A DNA stretch of 55,499 nucleotides from an uncultured Atribacterota bacterium (GTDB lineage: Bacteria > Atribacterota > Phoenicimicrobiia > Phoenicimicrobiales > Stramentimicrobiaceae). The position numbers and the translations under genes were made by a program. Location of the stretch: the NCBI GenBank assembly GCA_964485485.1, contig CAZAJW010000328.1:1-55499 (forward strand), read 5' to 3'. This document shows, one piece after another, positions 5,350-55,499 of this stretch (positions within the stretch are counted from its first letter, which is position 1; every line of letters starts with the position of its first letter). A model generated the notes under the pieces. That model worked only from the letters and a program-made list of their open reading frames with translations. It did no database searches and had not been told where the DNA came from.

Positions 5350-5952
5350 ATGCAAAAAACAGTTAGAATATTGGCTGTATTTCTATTGTTTTTTATTCTA
5401 CCTTCCTATTCTGTTTTCAGTATATCGGAAATAGAAATAGAAGATGAAAAAGAAATACAAACAGGGTGGTCTTCAGTAGATGACATTTTTAGTAAAAAGG
5501 AAATCAATCAATTAGTAATAAAACCAAATACTGGACCGATTAAAATTGGTTTTACTGTAAAAGAGGTTAGAGAAGTTATGGGGGTACCTGATAGTATAGA
5601 TGAAGAAGGTCATATATATTATTATCGACAATCTCCCATATTTTTTGATAATGAATGGAAGGTACAATCCTGGGATAATCGCTATGGAAATATAGATGTT
5701 CTGAAGGAAGCCGTAAAAATAGCTCCAGGTTCACATGTATCTGAAGTTTTCAAAGAAAAGGGTTTTCCGATTAGAATTACAAAAAATGGTTATAGTTACC
5801 AATTAGAATATCCCAATGAAATTATTTACGTTAGCAATAGATGGAATATGGAAGCAATTCAATACAGAAATATTGTAGAATACAAACAGGACAGGGCTAA
5901 TATGGAGATTGAAGAATTTTTAGAAGAATTTAATAACTATTTGAAAAAATAA
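5350..5952 (+). CDS. Secreted hypothetical protein
   Basis: Strong RBS GGAGG. N-terminal hydrophobic signal MQKTVRILAVFLLFFILPSYSVFS. No motif recognised. Confidence 0.55.
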   Translation: MQKTVRILAVFLLFFILPSYSVFSISEIEIEDEKEIQTGWSSVDDIFSKKEINQLVIKPNTGPIKIGFTVKEVREVMGVPDSIDEEGHIYYYRQSPIFFDNEWKVQSWDNRYGNIDVLKEAVKIAPGSHVSEVFKEKGFPIRITKNGYSYQLEYPNEIIYVSNRWNMEAIQYRNIVEYKQDRANMEIEEFLEEFNNYLKK

Positions 5953-48930: not shown

Positions 48931-51033
48931 GTGACTAAAAATGATGTTGACAGGATAAGAACTTTTGCAGTTGTTGGTCATGGAGATTCCGGTAAGACTT
49001 CCCTGACCGAAGCAATGCTTTATGACTCAAATATGATAACCCGGTTAGGAAAGATAGAACAAGGTAATACCGTTTCTGACTATGATCCAAAAGAAACCAA
49101 GAGGGGTATAACTATAAATTCTTCCTTAGCTTATCTGAATTGGAAAGACTCAACTTTTAATATTATTGATACACCTGGATATCTCGATTTTATAATCGAT
49201 ACAAAAACAAGTTTACGTGTAGTGGATACTGCGCTAATAGTTGTTTGTGGCGTATCTGGGGTGGAGGTTCAGACTGAGAAAGTCTGGGATTATTCCGAAG
49301 AATTTAAATTACCAAGTATCTTCTTTATTAATAAAATGGATAGGGAAAGAGCTGATTTTAACCGGACCAGTCAAATGATTAAAGATTATTTCGGTCAAAA
49401 TGCAGTTCCTATACAGCTGCCAATAGGATCTGAGGAAACTTTTGAAGGAGTTGTTGACTTGTTGAAGATGAAGGCATATTATTTTAAATCAAGCCCTGAA
49501 GGCAAAAGTCAGTTTGAGGAAAAAGAGATTCCAGAGGACCTAAAAGAAAAAACAAATGAATATCGTCAAAAGATGATAGAAGCAGTTACAGAATATGATG
49601 ATGAAATTTTGATGAAATACCTAGATGGAGAAGAGCTGAGCCAGGAAGAAATTCTTTCTTGTCTGAAAGGTGGAATGATAGAAAGAAAAGTTTTCCCAGT
49701 ATTATGCGGTTCAGCTACTAAGAATATTGGTATTGAATTGCTGCTTGATTTTATAAAAGATTATTTTCCAAGTCCGGTTGATTTACCGGAAATTGAAGTA
49801 AAAGACTTAAAAGAGCAAAAAGATATAAAAATAAAACGCTCATTAAGTGATACACCGTTTTCTGCTCTGGTATTTAAGACTGTAGCAGATCCTTATGTAG
49901 GGAACTTAACTTATTTTAGAGTTTTCTCCGGAGAGTTAAGCTCAGATTCTGCTGTCTACAATGCAACTCATGATATTGATAACAAGGTTGCCAAAATTTA
50001 CAGAATGCAGGGGAAAGAACAGGCCCCTGTTTCTAAAGTAATACCGGGAGGTATCGGTGCTATTGCTAAGCTAAAGAAAACAAACACCGGGGATACACTA
50101 TGCGATAAAGAACATCCCATTGAATTTAAGAGGATTGAATACCCTGAGCCAATTATGAAATTGTCAATATTCCCCAAGAGCAAGGGTGACGAGGACAAAC
50201 TTAGCATTGCTATTAACCGTATTGTAGAAGAGGAACCAACTATTCAAGTTTATCGGGATGAAGACACCGGAGAAACTATTATTGCTGGTATGGGAGAGTC
50301 TCACTTGGATGTAGTGATTGAAACAATGGAAACGAAATTTGGTGTGGAAATAGAAAAGAATACACCGAAAGTTGGCTACAAAGAAACAATACGTAAAAAG
50401 GTACAGGCAGAAGGAAAATATAAAAAACAATCCGGAGGTCGGGGCCAATATGGGCATTGTTTTGTAGAGTTTGAGCCCCAAGAACGGGGGAAAGGTTTTG
50501 AGTTTGTAGATAAGATAGTTGGTGGCGTAATACCAAAGCAATATCGCCCGGCAGTTGAAAAAGGCATTATAGAAGCAATGAAAAAAGGAGTATTTGCAGG
50601 CTATCCTACCGTAGATATCAAGGCCACATTGTATGATGGAAGTTACCATACCGTCGATTCATCGGAGATGGCTTTTAAGGTTGCTGGATCTATGGCATTC
50701 AAAAAAGGAGCTGCTCAGGCTGATCCTATTCTGTTAGAACCAATTTATGAGCTGGCAGTTACTGTTCCAAAAGATTATATGGGAGATATTATTGGAGATT
50801 TGAACAGTAAGCGAGGAAAGATTATGGGTATGGAAGAATCAGAAAAGGGTAGACAGCTTATTCGTGCTCAGGTTGCTCAAGCGGAAATATTTAGATATTC
50901 TATTGATTTGCGTTCTATTACCCAGGGTAGAGGTACTTTTACGATGAAATTTTCACATTATGAGGAAGTTCCTTCCCAAATTGCCCAGGAAATTGTAGAA
51001 CAAGCTAAAAAAGAGAATGAATCAGAATCATAG
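48931..51033 (+). CDS. Elongation factor G family GTPase (EF-G paralog)
   Basis: G1 GHGDSGKTS, G3 DTPG, G4 NKMD, domain IV YHTVDSSEMAF. 700 aa. GTG start after AAGGAGG. Confidence 0.85.
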   Translation: MTKNDVDRIRTFAVVGHGDSGKTSLTEAMLYDSNMITRLGKIEQGNTVSDYDPKETKRGITINSSLAYLNWKDSTFNIIDTPGYLDFIIDTKTSLRVVDTALIVVCGVSGVEVQTEKVWDYSEEFKLPSIFFINKMDRERADFNRTSQMIKDYFGQNAVPIQLPIGSEETFEGVVDLLKMKAYYFKSSPEGKSQFEEKEIPEDLKEKTNEYRQKMIEAVTEYDDEILMKYLDGEELSQEEILSCLKGGMIERKVFPVLCGSATKNIGIELLLDFIKDYFPSPVDLPEIEVKDLKEQKDIKIKRSLSDTPFSALVFKTVADPYVGNLTYFRVFSGELSSDSAVYNATHDIDNKVAKIYRMQGKEQAPVSKVIPGGIGAIAKLKKTNTGDTLCDKEHPIEFKRIEYPEPIMKLSIFPKSKGDEDKLSIAINRIVEEEPTIQVYRDEDTGETIIAGMGESHLDVVIETMETKFGVEIEKNTPKVGYKETIRKKVQAEGKYKKQSGGRGQYGHCFVEFEPQERGKGFEFVDKIVGGVIPKQYRPAVEKGIIEAMKKGVFAGYPTVDIKATLYDGSYHTVDSSEMAFKVAGSMAFKKGAAQADPILLEPIYELAVTVPKDYMGDIIGDLNSKRGKIMGMEESEKGRQLIRAQVAQAEIFRYSIDLRSITQGRGTFTMKFSHYEEVPSQIAQEIVEQAKKENESES

Positions 51034-51164
51034 CCAAATAAATAATAATATCATTATAATTATTTAAATATAAATTATTTTTTTAAAAAGTCTTGTTTTA
51101 AAAAGGTCTTGTTACTATAATAAAAACAAGAAATATTAATATTTAAAAGGGAGGTGGAATTTAG

Positions 51165-51257
51165 ATGGGCTTGTTTGCAGATTTAGAATGGTATTGGATT
51201 GCGGCAATAATAGCAGCTATTGTGGGAGTCATTTGGTGGCTAGGTGGGGAAGAATAA
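51165..51257 (+). CDS. Small (30 aa) hydrophobic protein MGLFADLEWYWIAAIIAAIVGVIWWLGGEE
   Basis: A strong RBS AAGGGAGGTGG sits 5 nt upstream. There is one predicted TM helix. It is not in the ORF track because it is below the size cutoff. Confidence 0.5.
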   Translation: MGLFADLEWYWIAAIIAAIVGVIWWLGGEE

Positions 51258-51319
51258 GATCAGACTAATAAAAATATATCCTCAAATATTAAAAGTATTA
51301 AATGTTAAAAATTAAAATG

Positions 51320-51358
51320 AGTGCAGGAGCATTGATTAATTTTAAGATGACCTGCACT
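51320..51358 (+). terminator. Possible terminator hairpin after small ORF
   Basis: AGTGCAGG (51320-51327) pairs with CCTGCACT (51351-51358). The loop is long and there is no tight U tract, so this is weak. Confidence 0.3.
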
Positions 51359-51392
51359 TATTCATTCATTGTTGTTTTTATTATCTATTAGC

Positions 51393-51465
51393 AGTTTTCC
51401 ATGAAAAGGTTAAACCTCTTTTGGAGGCCCTTAGAACCACCCGCTATACGGGTGCGATATTTACT
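51393..51465 (+). repeat. Intergenic modular repeat, copy G (minimal: A-box start fused directly to C-box)
   Basis: AGTTTTCCATGAAAAG is joined to GTTAAACCTCTTTTGGAGGCCCTTAGAACCACCCGCTATACGGGTGCGATATTTACT. Confidence 0.72.
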
Positions 51466-51552
51466 AAATAGTAACCATATCAAATGTTATTATAAAATTT
51501 ACTGGGGTACTAAAGAATCTGAAAACTTGTTCTCTAATATTAAATACATTGA

Positions 51553-51581
51553 TTGACTTTTCAAATTACATTAATTATAAT
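51553..51581 (+). promoter_or_regulatory. Sigma-70 promoter of leuS leader
   Basis: TTGACT (51553-51558), 17-nt spacer, TATAAT (51576-51581). Confidence 0.65.
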
Positions 51582-51606
51582 GATAAAAGTTTTTTAAAAT
51601 TAGTAA

Positions 51607-51933
51607 AATAGAGTACAGGAAATTTATTGAGTTGTAATGATAACAGAGAGTCAGTAATGGTGGAAGCTGATACATTATCTCAAAAAGCTCACCTGTTTAA
51701 TACCTGAATGAAAGAATTGTTTTATAAAGTAATTCAGGTCGTTTTTAAACGTTAAATAAACAAAGAGGGTAGATGGGGCTGTAGCTCAGTCGGGAGAGTG
51801 CCTCCTTGGCGTGGAGGAGGTCGCGGGTTCGATTCCCGCCAGCTCCACCATAAATATCTACTAAAAAAGGGTGGTACCACGGGAAATCTCGTCCCTTGTA
51901 ATGTATTTGTAAATTACAGGTGACGGGTTTTTT
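51607..51933 (+). promoter_or_regulatory. T-box riboswitch leader of leuS (specifier most likely CUC, Leu)
   Basis: Elements in order along the leader are as follows. AGAGTA at 51610-51615. AG bulge AGAGAG at 51645-51650. Distal loop GGTGGAA at 51659-51665. Specifier region AAAAGCTCA, with CTC at 51688-51690 followed by A. Stem II ACCTGAAT/ATTCAGGT at 51702-51739. F-box-like ACGTTA near 51750. T-box sequence AGGGTGGTACCACG at 51868-51881. Terminator at 51887-51927 followed by a run of six U. Confidence 0.85.
51775..51850 (+). tRNA. tRNA-Ala (anticodon GGC), CCA encoded, located inside the leuS T-box leader
   Basis: The cloverleaf is GGGGCTG-TA-GCTC-AGTCGGGA-GAGT-G-CCTCC-TTGGCGT-GGAGG-AGGTC-GCGGG-TTCGATT-CCCGC-CAGCTCC-A-CCA. 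It has the G3:U70 alanine identity pair. The anticodon GGC is at 51808-51810. Confidence 0.9.
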
Positions 51934-51957
51934 CTATTTTTAAGGGAGACAATCAGG

Positions 51958-54450
51958 ATGAAAGAAACATACGATTTTAAGGAAGTTGAAACTAAATGGC
52001 AGAAATACTGGTATAGTCAGAATTTTTTTGAAAGTAATGTTGATAAAAATAAAAAAGAATATTATGTGTTGGAGATGTTCCCCTATCCTTCTGGAGAGCC
52101 ACACATGGGACATGTTAAGAACTATGTGATAGGTGATGTTGTGGCACGTTATAAACAAAGTCGTGGATTTAATATTTTACATCCTATGGGCTGGGATTCT
52201 TTTGGTTTACCCGCCGAAAATGCTGCTATCAAGAATCAGATACATCCGGCAATATGGACCAAGAACAATATACAGAAAATGAAAAATACTCTTCAATCAA
52301 TGGGAATAACCTATGATTGGAATCGGGAAATTTCAACTTGTAGCCCTGAATATTATAAATGGACTCAATGGATATTTTTACAACTATATAAAAATAGACT
52401 TGCTTATAAGAAGAAAGCCGTAGTTAATTGGTGCCCATCTTGTGCAACTGTTCTTGCGAATGAGCAAGTTGTAAATGGCAGATGTGAGAGATGTGGTGCT
52501 GAGGTAACAAAAAAGGAATTATCCCAGTGGTTTTTTAAAATTACTGATTATGCCCAACAACTCTTGGATGATATGGATATCCTTGAGGAATGGCCTGAAC
52601 GAGTGCTGACTATGCAGAAGAACTGGATAGGGCGAAGTGAAGGCGCTAAAGTAGAATTTAAGATTTCCGGAAGAGAGGAAACCATATCAGTCTTTACTAC
52701 ACGACCGGATACGCTTTTTGGAGTAACGTTTTTTGTTCTTTCTCCTGAACATCCTATGGTTGAACAGCTTACCAAGGGGACATCATACGAGAAAGAAGTT
52801 AAGCAATTCAGAAATGAAATTGCCAAGGAAAATGTATCTGAAAAAGATTTAGCTACAACCGAAAAAAGAGGATGCTTTATCGGACAATATGCCATTAATC
52901 CGCTTAATCTGGAAAAAGTTCCCATATGGGTGGCTAATTATGTTTTGATGGAATATGGAACCGGTATGGTTATGGCAGTACCGGCACATGATCAACGAGA
53001 TCTAGAATTTGCCCAAAAATACAACCTTCCTGTAAGGGTGGTTATTCAACCTGAAAATGCAGCACTTTCAGGCGAAACTTTAAGCGAAGCTTATGACGGG
53101 GAAGGGGTGATGGTTAACTCCGGTGAATTTAATGGTCTGCATAGCTTAAAAGCTAAAGAAGTGATTACTAAATACCTGGAGGATAAAAATTTAGGAAAGA
53201 AAGAAATCAATTATCGATTAAGAGATTGGTTGATATCAAGACAACGATATTGGGGTGCGCCGATACCTATAATCTATTGTGAGAAATGCGGAATTGTTCC
53301 TGTTCCTGAGAGTAATTTGCCTGTTTATTTACCGGAAGATGTTAATTTTAAACCTACAGGGTTATCACCATTGTTATCTAGTAAGGAATTTCTTTATACC
53401 ACTTGTCCCATTTGTGGAGGAAAAGCAAGAAGAGAAACAGATACTATGGATACTTTTGTTTGTTCTTCCTGGTATTATTTACGTTTTTGTTCACCAAACT
53501 TGACTGAAAAACCTTTTGATGACGAAGAGTTACATTACTGGATGCCGGTTGATCAATATATTGGTGGTGTGGAACACGCAATTTTGCATCTACTTTATTC
53601 CCGTTTTTTTGTCAAAGCTCTTAATGATATGGGGTACCTTCGTTTTAAAGAACCATTTAAGAGGCTATTTACCCAGGGAATGGTGTGCAAAGATGGTGCT
53701 GCTATGTCAAAGTCCAAGGGAAATGTAGTTACCCCAGGTGAGATATTCAGCCAGTATGGTATTGATGCGACCAGGGTAATGATACTTTTTGCCAGCCCTC
53801 CTGAAGTCGACATGGAGTGGAGTGACAAGGGAATTGAAGGAGCCTCTCGTTTTTTAAATCGTGTCTGGCGACTTGTGTTCCAATATCAAAAACTCTTTAA
53901 GGAAAAAGAATATACCAGCATTCCAAAAGATAATATCAATAAGGATATTAAGGATTTAAAAAGAAAAATACATCAAACTATAAAAAAAGTAACTGAGGAT
54001 ATTGAAGAACGGTTCCACTTTAATACTGCTATAAGTGCTATTATGGAATTGGTTAATAGCTTATATGGTTTTGATTTGAAAGTTTCCCAGATGAGTCAGG
54101 CGCATAAATTAGTTTTTAAAGATGCTATAGAGACAACTATCAAATTGCTTAATCCCATTGCTCCACATTTCTGTGAAGAATTATGGCACGAGATTGGATA
54201 CAAAAAAAGTCTGTATTTAGAACCATGGCCAAAATATAGCGTTGATGCATTGAAAGAAGAGGAAATACTCATCGTTGTACAAATAAACGGTAAATTAAGG
54301 GATAAGATAAAAATATTATCAGATATTTCTGAAGAAGATATTAAAGAAAAAGTGTTAAAATTACCAAAAGTTAAAAAGTGGATTAATAATAAAAAAATTG
54401 ATAAGATTATATATGTATCAGGTAAATTGTTAAATATTGTAGTTCATTGA
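51958..54450 (+). CDS. leuS: Leucyl-tRNA synthetase
   Basis: HMGH (HIGH) motif, KMSKS motif and CP1 editing domain. 830 aa. Confidence 0.95.
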
Positions 54451-54497: not shown

Positions 54498-54971
54498 ATG
54501 GCATCTTTTGGTGATTTAAATTCTTTTGTTGGCATAGGTCGTTTAACAAGAGATCCAGAGCTAAGATATACGCCTTCCGGGACGGCTGTATGCAAATTTG
54601 GCTTGGCTATTAACAGGAGTTTTAGAAATCAGGAGGGAAATAATATAGAAGATACATTATTTATAAATGTGTCTGCTTGGGGAAGACAAGCCGAACATTG
54701 TTCACAGTTTCTAAAAAAGGGAAGAAGGGTTGCGATTAACGGAGAGCTCAGGTCTAATTCCTGGCAAGATAGGGAAGGAAATAAAAGGGTAACTTATGAA
54801 ATCAATGCACGTAGTGTTCAATTTTTAGATTATTTGAAGGATACCACTAGCAGCTCAGAAGAAGGATACCGTAAAGATAATCAATCTCAGGAAAATTCTG
54901 TTGAAGATAATTCTGGACAAGAAAATAGTCATATTGAAGAAGACGGCAATGAAGAAGACATTCCCTTTTAA
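54498..54971 (+). CDS. ssb: Single-stranded DNA-binding protein
   Basis: OB-fold N-terminus (NSFVGIGRLTRDPELRYTPSG) and acidic tail ending EEDIPF. Confidence 0.9.
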   Translation: MASFGDLNSFVGIGRLTRDPELRYTPSGTAVCKFGLAINRSFRNQEGNNIEDTLFINVSAWGRQAEHCSQFLKKGRRVAINGELRSNSWQDREGNKRVTYEINARSVQFLDYLKDTTSSSEEGYRKDNQSQENSVEDNSGQENSHIEEDGNEEDIPF

Positions 54972-55263: not shown

Positions 55264-55339
55264 GGGCGGGTAGCTCAGTTGGGAGAGCACTGGCTTTACA
55301 AGCCAGGGGTCACAGGTTCAAGCCCTGTTCCGCCTACCA
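55264..55339 (+). tRNA. tRNA-Val (anticodon TAC)
   Basis: Cloverleaf GGGCGGG-TA-GCTC-AGTTGGGA-GAGC-A-CTGGC-TTTACAA-GCCAG-GGGTC-ACAGG-TTCAAGC-CCTGT-TCCGCCT-A-CCA. Confidence 0.88.
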
Positions 55340-55352
55340 TTAATTTTAATAT

Positions 55353-55431
55353 GGGGTCGTAGTGCAGCTCGGTTTAACACGCCTGCCTGTCACGCAGGAG
55401 ATCGCGGGTTCAAATCCCGTCGACCCCGCCA
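55353..55431 (+). tRNA. tRNA-Asp (anticodon GTC)
   Basis: Acceptor GGGGTCG/CGACCCC, anticodon arm CCTGC-CTGTCAC-GCAGG, T arm GCGGG-TTCAAAT-CCCGT, discriminator G, CCA encoded. Confidence 0.88.
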
Positions 55432-55460: not shown

Positions 55461-55499
55461 GCCGAGATAGCTCAGTCGGTAGAGCAGTGGACTGAAAAT
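55461..55499 (+). tRNA. tRNA-Phe (anticodon GAA), 5' part only (runs off window)
   Basis: GCCGAGA-TA-GCTC-AGTCGGTA-GAGC-A-GTGGA-CTGAAAA-T... It is truncated at the window end. Confidence 0.75.

Follow-up and report, generated by a model that had tools for sequence, protein, structure and literature searches.

The leader of leuS, the gene for leucyl-transfer RNA (tRNA) synthetase (LeuRS), on contig CAZAJW010000328.1 of an uncultured Atribacterota bacterium (assembly GCA_964485485.1) probably unites two functional elements behind one promoter, namely a transcription-attenuating T-box riboswitch with the specifier codon Leu(CUC), which controls leuS, and a gene for tRNA-Ala(GGC), which is nested in the loop of Stem III of the same riboswitch. 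T-box riboswitches are the textbook case of tRNA-sensing RNAs, and Stem III is known from structural work to be essential for sensing aminoacylation. The window analysed here is the whole stretch of 55,499 nucleotides (nt) of this contig, which has a G+C content of 33.6% and is numbered on its forward (+) strand. An earlier note on this DNA had regarded the arrangement as a singular oddity, but it turned out to represent a widespread class, which has been conserved in well over 100 species of bacteria that represent about seven phyla (Bacillota, Chloroflexota, Atribacterota, Armatimonadota, Caldisericota, Coprothermobacterota, and Sysuimicrobiota).

As judged from Rfam alignment, repeat search, folding, and Pfam, all canonical parts of a T-box leader occur in the normal order from the promoter to leuS (51553-54450, + strand), exactly where the earlier note had put them. 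The leader promoter (51553-51581) consists of a -35 hexamer TTGACT (51553-51558), a 17-nt spacer and a -10 hexamer TATAAT (51576-51581), and scores 11 of 12 in a consensus scan. The T-box model RF00230 matches positions 51602-51899 over its entire length (model positions 1-219) and reaches 101.9 bits, where 93 are required (E 2e-21). The alignment to this model defines Stem I (51602-51700) with the AG bulge ACAGAGAG (51643-51650), the distal loop AAUGGUGGAAGC (51656-51667), which represents the platform for the tRNA elbow, and a specifier loop (51682-51693), in which the leucine codon CUC (51688-51690) is followed by the purine A (51691). Stem II (51703-51738) and Stem IIA/B with the F-box CGUUA (51739-51754) come next, both of which are conserved within the lineage, followed by the purine string AAGAG (51763-51767), which corresponds to the RRRxG consensus. 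The 5' strand of Stem III, GGUAGAU (51768-51774), directly abuts position +1 of the tRNA, and after the 3' strand, AUCUACU (51856-51862), comes the AA that is conserved as part of the RRRxG-Stem III-AA motif.

The tRNA-Ala(GGC) enclosed between these strands (51775-51850) carries an encoded CCA end, the G3:U70 pair and A73. It was recognized by ARAGORN as well as by the Rfam tRNA model (67 bits versus a cut-off of 29), and the RF00230 alignment treats it in its entirety as an insertion in the loop of Stem III, with GGUAGAU and AUCUACU paired. The proposal of the earlier note that the tRNA sits in the apical loop of Stem III is therefore borne out in the covariance-model test that the note had suggested, and the helix GTAGAT/ATCTAC, on which this proposal depended, is placed as Stem III by the covariance model rather than left unpaired. 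Downstream of the tRNA, the T-box sequence AGGGUGGUACCACG (51868-51881) lies in an antiterminator or discriminator domain (51867-51897, -9.2 kcal/mol), which contains a 7-nt bulge, UGGUACC (51872-51878), and the helix A2 (51879-51883 paired with 51888-51892). The UGGU of the bulge (51872-51875) is complementary to the ACCA end of a tRNA, and the discriminator base of tRNA-Leu is A73; a gene for tRNA-Leu(GAG) is absent from the window. The antiterminator competes with an intrinsic terminator hairpin (51888-51927, -20.8 kcal/mol), which was detected as an inverted repeat, is followed by six U residues (51928-51933) and is conserved within the lineage. The two structures are mutually exclusive, as positions 51888-51897 are common to both. 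A Shine-Dalgarno sequence AAGGGAG (51942-51948) precedes leuS (51958-54450), which codes for a protein of 830 amino acids with the LeuRS editing domain (1.9e-75), the class I tRNA synthetase domain and the anticodon-binding domain.

The earlier note had also found no separate promoter or terminator for the tRNA, and none was seen between Stem I and the tRNA by consensus scans. On the + strand, no promoter-like site is present at 51610-51775 or at 51851-51957, and a simple terminator scan with a loop limit of 8 nt gave no terminator-like site on the 5' side of the tRNA. Note that the same scanner missed the terminator of the leader because of its 10-nt loop, whereas inverted-repeat search and folding revealed it. 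Minimum-free-energy folds of the whole leader and of 51760-51870 retained the outer helix of Stem III without reproducing the cloverleaf, and single-sequence folding was not relied on. A chance match or an assembly artefact was ruled out, because the combined pattern of tRNA and T-box was found in none of 100 shuffled versions of the window and recurs at 114 genome loci and on 58 metagenome contigs.

The distribution of the arrangement was assessed by scanning one genome per species (GTDB representatives) for the tRNA T-arm GGTTCRANTCC, followed after 20-50 nt by GGGTGGNACCRCG. This pattern is specific for neither alanine nor leucine and is able to match other tRNAs, such as the tRNA-Asp of the window. 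It yielded at least 120 matches, and the look at related leuS leaders that the earlier note had called for thus revealed the same insertion many times over: among the matches listed, to which all locus counts given here refer, 114 are genuine and six arose by chance. The latter (L020, L025, L029, L060, L062, and L085) match the pattern without showing the nested arrangement; in one of them, L025 from Oribacterium sinus (5685-5748), the pattern lies upstream of a PheS-like open reading frame (ORF) with no tRNA detected, and may represent a T-arm-like string inside Stem III of a pheS T-box. ARAGORN identified a tRNA at 110 of the 114 genuine loci, the other four being cut by the edge of the locus, and this tRNA is Ala(GGC) in 110 of 110 cases. 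Going by the titles of the records, Chloroflexota account for 47 loci, Syntrophomonadaceae for 28 and other Bacillota for 20, and the remaining 19 belong to Atribacterota, Armatimonadota, Candidatus Sysuimicrobiota, Coprothermobacterota, Caldisericota, unclassified metagenome-assembled genomes and a few doubtful contigs. Those labelled as proteobacteria, Bacteroidales or Acidiferrales (L008, L061, L023, L026, and L007) may be mis-binned, which is suggested for L026 and L023 by flanking sequences that closely resemble those at L027 (Anaerolineales) and at Syntrophomonas-type loci. Cultured carriers of the arrangement include Thermosyntropha lipolytica DSM 11003, Desulfofundulus thermosubterraneus DSM 16057, Desulfotruncus alcoholivorax DSM 16058, Desulfitispora alkaliphila DSM 22410 and Tengunoibacter tsumagoiensis Uno3.

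The riboswitch has been conserved together with the inserted tRNA. The RF00230 model aligned over its full length across the tRNA in all 26 sequences tested, eight of which (the window and seven homologues) reach the gathering score, and the 18 below it are likewise full-length matches with E values between 1e-6 and 3e-17. Full-length T-boxes were recorded for Atribacterota (L114), Caldisericota (L111), Coprothermobacterota (L055 and L104) and Armatimonadota or Candidatus Sysuimicrobiota (L076 and L089, L038 and L063), all of which are, to our knowledge, phyla not usually listed as carriers of T-boxes. The specifier motif GAA-CUC-R-YC was recovered by a regular expression in 103 of 111 leaders; among the eight others, several are one-base variants by eye, and the upstream sequence of L064 is too short for a judgement. 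A crude expression for a T-run on the 3' side of the T-box matched in 100 of 113 homologues.

Pairing across the nested tRNA was evaluated for 87 distinct loci in a fixed register, in which the 7 nt following RRRxG were set against the 7 nt ending 5 nt before GGGUGG, both anchors being independent of the pairing itself. Standard pairs occupy 79.6% of the Stem III cells, compared with 58.3% after shuffling and 27-47% with the partner columns displaced. Compensatory changes are present in each of the seven pairs, and both sides have changed in 177 cells versus 64 expected; the observed values were reached in none of 500 shuffles. Flanks from the same locus also pair better than flanks from mismatched loci, with mean energies of -10.1 versus -6.9 kcal/mol (Mann-Whitney p = 5e-12). 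As pairing matters only if both strands are part of one RNA, this covariation suggests that the transcript extends across the tRNA. The A located 5 nt before GGGUGG, just after Stem III, is invariant (87/87), the next A is conserved to at least 90%, and the position of the tRNA is similarly constrained, with a median distance of 11 nt between RRRxG and position +1 and of 14 nt between the tRNA end and the AA motif. At five loci (L040, L105, L111, L055, and L104), just 3-6 nt separate the 3' end of the tRNA from the conserved AA that precedes GGGUGG, which is too short for a separate helix, and the acceptor stem of the nested tRNA appears to replace Stem III in these leaders. In two cases, L111 (Caldisericota) and L055 (Coprothermobacterota), the leader measures no more than about 237 nt with the tRNA counted in.

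The nested tRNA itself qualifies as a genuine tRNA-Ala by every sequence criterion, and is predicted to function in translation. Among the loci listed, including the window, the alanine identity elements G3:U70 and A73 are present in 111 of 111 embedded tRNAs, which comprise 78 distinct sequences. The CCA end is encoded in 88 of the 111 and not in the other 23, which are mostly from Chloroflexota. The consensus fold of 38 diverse nested tRNAs is a cloverleaf, in which 15 of 21 pairs show compensatory changes, a sign of purifying selection on the fold, and G3:U70 and A73 are present in 38 of 38 sequences; the only three non-standard cells are G-A combinations, all of them at the D-stem pair 12:23. 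The Rfam model for transfer-messenger RNA (tmRNA) assigned 37-46 bits, against a cut-off of 47, to the nested tRNA-Ala of the window and of L114, L010, L055, L105, L030, L043, and L072. This sub-threshold match (46 versus 47 bits) was dismissed as a cross-match to the tRNA-Ala-like fold, and weak matches to mascRNA (RF01684; 21 bits, E 0.17), Plastid-ycf2 and a miRNA family were likewise regarded as cross-matches or noise. No relation was found between the codons or anticodons of Leu(CUC/GAG) and those of Ala(GCC/GGC) which would account for the combination of the two elements.

A closer view of the Atribacterota lineage of the window is provided by locus L114 from a single-cell genome, which is the closest among those listed (68% identity of LeuS) and shares the synteny of fusA, leader, leuS and tRNA genes with the window. 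The variable D-stem positions of the nested tRNA differ between the two in a compensatory way. Metagenomes were additionally scanned with the 3'-terminal 50 nt of the tRNA of this lineage as an exact pattern, yielding 61 contigs, 58 of which contain a T-box motif directly downstream of the tRNA, while two are cut by the contig edge and one (L157) has a degenerate T-box-like sequence. None of these 61 contigs carries a free-standing copy of the tRNA-Ala(GGC) at the level of the exact 50-nt pattern, which suggests that the nested gene may be the sole tRNA-Ala(GGC) gene in the genomes of the lineage and lends indirect support to its predicted role in translation. In 53 unique leaders of the lineage, which are 64-93% identical to that of the window, both promoter hexamers are conserved to at least 95%, sequences further upstream are not conserved, and hardly any variation is seen at the 26 tRNA positions that the search pattern does not cover. 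The deviating contig, L157 (6192-6300), contains the tRNA-Ala(GGC) of the lineage and the upstream CUC motif, with the degenerate sequence AAAGGTGGTTCTGCGGG in place of the T-box motif and no ORF of at least 60 amino acids starting within 400 nt; it may represent a decaying or variant copy.

The surroundings of the leader in the window are as follows. The fusA gene (48931-51033) is separated from the leader promoter by a 520-nt, very AT-rich spacer (51034-51552), which contains a hairpin AATGAGTGCAGG...CCTGCACTTATT at 51316-51362, possibly the terminator of fusA; this spacer gave no match to an Rfam family, even at E values up to 1. Downstream of leuS, ssb (54498-54971) is followed by a cluster of genes for tRNA-Val(TAC) (55264-55339), tRNA-Asp(GTC) (55353-55431) and a third tRNA, which starts at 55461 and is cut by the end of the window. 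A matching tRNA cluster is present downstream of leuS at L114.

At the 114 loci listed, the gene following the leader codes for LeuS in 95 cases, for a class IV aminotransferase of the branched-chain (IlvE-like) type in 12 (L016, L030, L038, L063, L064, L069, L070, L071, L075, L076, L083, and L096), for an AMP-binding enzyme in three Desulfotomaculia-type genomes (L013, L032, and L079) and for an alpha/beta hydrolase in two (L026 and L034), with two more loci ending at the contig edge. The Leu(CUC) T-box and its nested tRNA-Ala(GGC) have been duplicated or moved as a unit to genes other than leuS; a leucine T-box is not an evident match for the AMP-binding and hydrolase genes.

A further level of interleaving was observed in Chloroflexota. 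At 22 of the 98 loci with enough upstream sequence, all of them of the Chloroflexota type, a second tRNA gene of the same orientation precedes the nested one by 182-370 nt, and this upstream tRNA is always an alanine tRNA, Ala(CGC). By Rfam coordinates, the gap between its end and the first T-box position is only 5-42 nt at nine Chloroflexota loci: 5 nt at L030 (1107-1507, - strand), 9 nt at L043 (1456-1860, -), 10 nt at L082 (5715-6154, +), 11 nt at L072 (3327-3746, -), 12 nt at L053 (842-1267, +), 18 nt at L065 (3327-3736, -) and at L027 (5288-5666, -), 27 nt at L047 (3467-3892, +) and 42 nt at L067 (7142-7587, -). Most of these gaps are too small for a promoter, and co-transcription of riboswitch and tRNA therefore seems almost unavoidable at these loci. 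As predicted from this organization, the Stem I/II domain would be the spacer of a tRNA-Ala(CGC)-tRNA-Ala(GGC) operon, with leuS as its last gene.

The structural part of the interpretation given in the earlier note is thus supported, and the covariation of Stem III, the conservation of the promoter and the compensatory changes in the tRNA strengthen it. Co-transcription, excision of the tRNA by ribonuclease (RNase) P together with 3' nucleases, the succession of these steps and a possible advantage of the arrangement are inferred. The single promoter upstream of Stem I would drive one primary transcript through leuS, containing in this order the Stem I/II domain as sensor of the anticodon and elbow of tRNA-Leu, the 5' strand of Stem III, tRNA-Ala, the 3' strand of Stem III, the antiterminator/terminator region and leuS. 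Since the tRNA is located upstream of the sole terminator, terminated and read-through transcripts would both contain it, and each initiation event should yield one tRNA-Ala precursor, regardless of read-through into leuS. The discriminator would test the 3' end of tRNA-Leu within about 80 nt of transcription past the tRNA, and this decision probably precedes the excision of the tRNA by RNase P and 3' nucleases, which would then separate the sensor from the leuS mRNA. Speculative benefits would be that terminated leaders, otherwise discarded, give rise to a useful tRNA, that leuS is initiated from a promoter effectively of the tRNA type, that leaders are cleared quickly, and that the leuS mRNA receives a defined, hairpin-protected 5' end, as is the case for processed T-box leaders elsewhere.

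Some features weigh against this model of a functional tRNA gene carried by a functional attenuator. In the window, base pairing of the 5' strand of Stem III continues to position -1 of the tRNA; the acceptor helix is thereby extended, which should make cleavage by RNase P slower. The 3' end of terminated transcripts is closed by a stable hairpin, and an endonuclease would be required for a CCA-encoding tRNA to mature at its 3' end. The exact 50-nt pattern on which the single-copy status of the tRNA is based would miss a diverged paralogue. Finally, hitch-hiking of the tRNA on the leader transcript does not by itself explain the invariable Ala(GGC) identity, for which a single old insertion is the only account at hand. 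A more far-reaching proposal, which we put forward only tentatively and regard as possible rather than probable, is that the nested tRNA is a built-in component with a function of its own in a separate class of T-boxes. The 5' cut by RNase P would then sever the sensor from the discriminator in an irreversible and timed manner, resetting the switch, releasing the ligand and creating the 5' end of the leuS mRNA, and the acceptor stem would serve as Stem III in some lineages. If this proposal is correct, the supply of LeuRS would be coupled to the activity of a tRNA promoter and to the capacity for tRNA processing, and the tRNA-Ala(CGC) genes in Chloroflexota would point to an ancient riboswitch that evolved interleaved with a tRNA-Ala operon.

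A related explanation, according to which the tRNA has been kept mainly as a cis-acting part of the riboswitch, is compatible with the release of a functional tRNA and appears rather unlikely. It may be envisaged as a fast-folding clamp which nucleates or replaces Stem III, as a site on the nascent leader to which alanyl-tRNA synthetase (AlaRS), EF-Tu or RNase P binds, or as a timer set by the irreversible RNase P cut between sensor and discriminator. The strict Ala(GGC) identity in 110 of 110 cases, obtained with a pattern that could match other tRNAs, would be expected for such a part, but one ancient insertion followed by vertical descent would equally lead to a uniform identity. Further indications in this direction are the tight conservation of the 11-nt and 14-nt median distances, the five leaders almost without an outer helix (L040, L105, L111, L055, and L104), in which the acceptor stem would have to replace Stem III, and the intact transfer of the module to ilvE-like, AMP-binding and hydrolase genes. 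However, a simple hairpin as Stem III is sufficient for canonical leuS T-boxes, as evident from the Rfam consensus, and the nested tRNA keeps all of its decoding features, including the CCA status typical of the respective lineage, which would not be needed in a mere scaffold.

Two other explanations deny that riboswitch and tRNA work together. It is highly improbable that the leader is composed of two or three overlapping independent units, with a hidden tRNA promoter in the Stem II region or a leuS promoter on the 3' side of the tRNA, such that the two halves of the T-box would not belong to one RNA. The region is AT-rich and contains many weak promoter-like sites (19 versus 6.4 expected), yet none of those on the + strand falls into 51610-51775 or 51851-51957, the sequence from Stem I to the tRNA is accounted for by conserved T-box elements, Stem III pairs and covaries across the tRNA, and the sensor half has been conserved along with the discriminator half in seven phyla. 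Even less credible is the idea that the T-box is a relic inactivated by insertion of the tRNA, which would leave leuS expressed constitutively or controlled in another way. Most homologues do score below the Rfam gathering cut-off, with 45-86 bits, but these low values are explained by the penalty for an insertion of 75-100 nt, and all matches are of full length. Moreover, the specifier codon, the purine string, the AA flank, the T-box bulge and the terminator are conserved, and the helices covary across phyla, which is not expected in a dead element.

Because the insertion lowers most leaders below the gathering score of Rfam, annotation pipelines probably miss the T-box and report an isolated tRNA upstream of leuS. 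Sub-cut-off T-box scores and the near-cut-off tmRNA scores are thus likely causes of missed or wrong annotation. If the transcript behaves as predicted, attenuated leaders would not be wasted, each of them giving a tRNA, and the riboswitch would be a natural substrate of RNase P, whose sensor and effector halves are parted after the decision. This would offer a natural system for studying the competition between a co-transcriptional decision and RNA processing. The distal part of Stem III would moreover tolerate a structured insert of about 76-100 nt, which may be useful in engineering T-box devices. The conservation over several phyla, always combining tRNA-Ala(GGC) with Leu(CUC), points to an old event and bears on the co-evolution of T-boxes and tRNA operons.

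No description of a tRNA nested in a T-box was found in the searchable literature, in line with the view of the earlier note that the arrangement seems to be undescribed, although an earlier remark in other T-box surveys is possible. As far as can be judged from the sequence, the novelty with respect to described T-boxes lies in a separate gene that occupies Stem III, in an element which otherwise belongs to the T-box family and with an insert which is otherwise a tRNA-Ala. The leader resembles the canonical leuS T-box of the Bacillus type (RF00230) in its Stem I with K-turn region, AG bulge, distal platform and leucine specifier, in its Stem II with Stem IIA/B, in a Stem III framed by RRRxG and AA, in the UGGN bulge and in the competing antiterminator and terminator upstream of leuS. 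The framing of the Stem III helix by the purines 5'-RRRxG ... AA-3' is a known trait of T-boxes, and insertions of unknown function in T-boxes were noted in a review from 2020 (PMC7583486). In contrast to the canonical element, whose Stem III loop consists of a few nt, the loop in the window accommodates an entire tRNA gene of 76 nt, which is specific for another amino acid, and predicted sites for RNase P and 3' processing are located between sensor and discriminator.

Stem Sa of the staphylococcal glyS T-box, a 42-nt hairpin in the antiterminator which modulates ligand selection and antibiotic binding (PMC9177973), likewise represents extra RNA in the discriminator domain that is conserved within a lineage. 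The insert described here differs from it in being an autonomous gene with its own predicted product, in its location in Stem III and in its conservation across phyla. Units of tRNA and mRNA are also known from the thrU-tyrU-glyT-thrT-tufB operon of E. coli and from the tRNA punctuation of mitochondrial transcripts, in which a promoter is shared and RNase P and 3' nucleases release the tRNAs and define the mRNA ends. The nested tRNA and leuS may represent a comparable unit, and are encoded on the same strand behind one conserved promoter, with no internal promoter-like site and no terminator-like site preceding the tRNA. The tRNAs of the known units are simple intergenic spacers, however, whereas the nested tRNA of the window is surrounded by a folded regulatory RNA, whose two halves have to cooperate, and is followed by a conditional terminator.

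The mascRNA and MEN-beta elements (RF01684), the former derived from MALAT1, are comparable as tRNA-shaped modules in longer transcripts which serve as RNase P substrates, a role that is only predicted for the nested tRNA. Unlike mascRNA, which is a non-aminoacylated mimic, the nested tRNA has all the sequence hallmarks of a true tRNA-Ala. Processing of T-box leaders as such has precedents. The thrS T-box leader of B. subtilis is subject to endonucleolytic cleavage by RNase J1/Y. The met T-box leader of S. aureus is cut by RNase III (PMC7913692). Just as in these cases, the cut in the leuS leader would follow the regulatory decision and change the stability of the downstream mRNA; in contrast to the leader-specific RNase J1/Y or RNase III sites of the thrS and met leaders, the cuts predicted here would be the generic ones of tRNA maturation.

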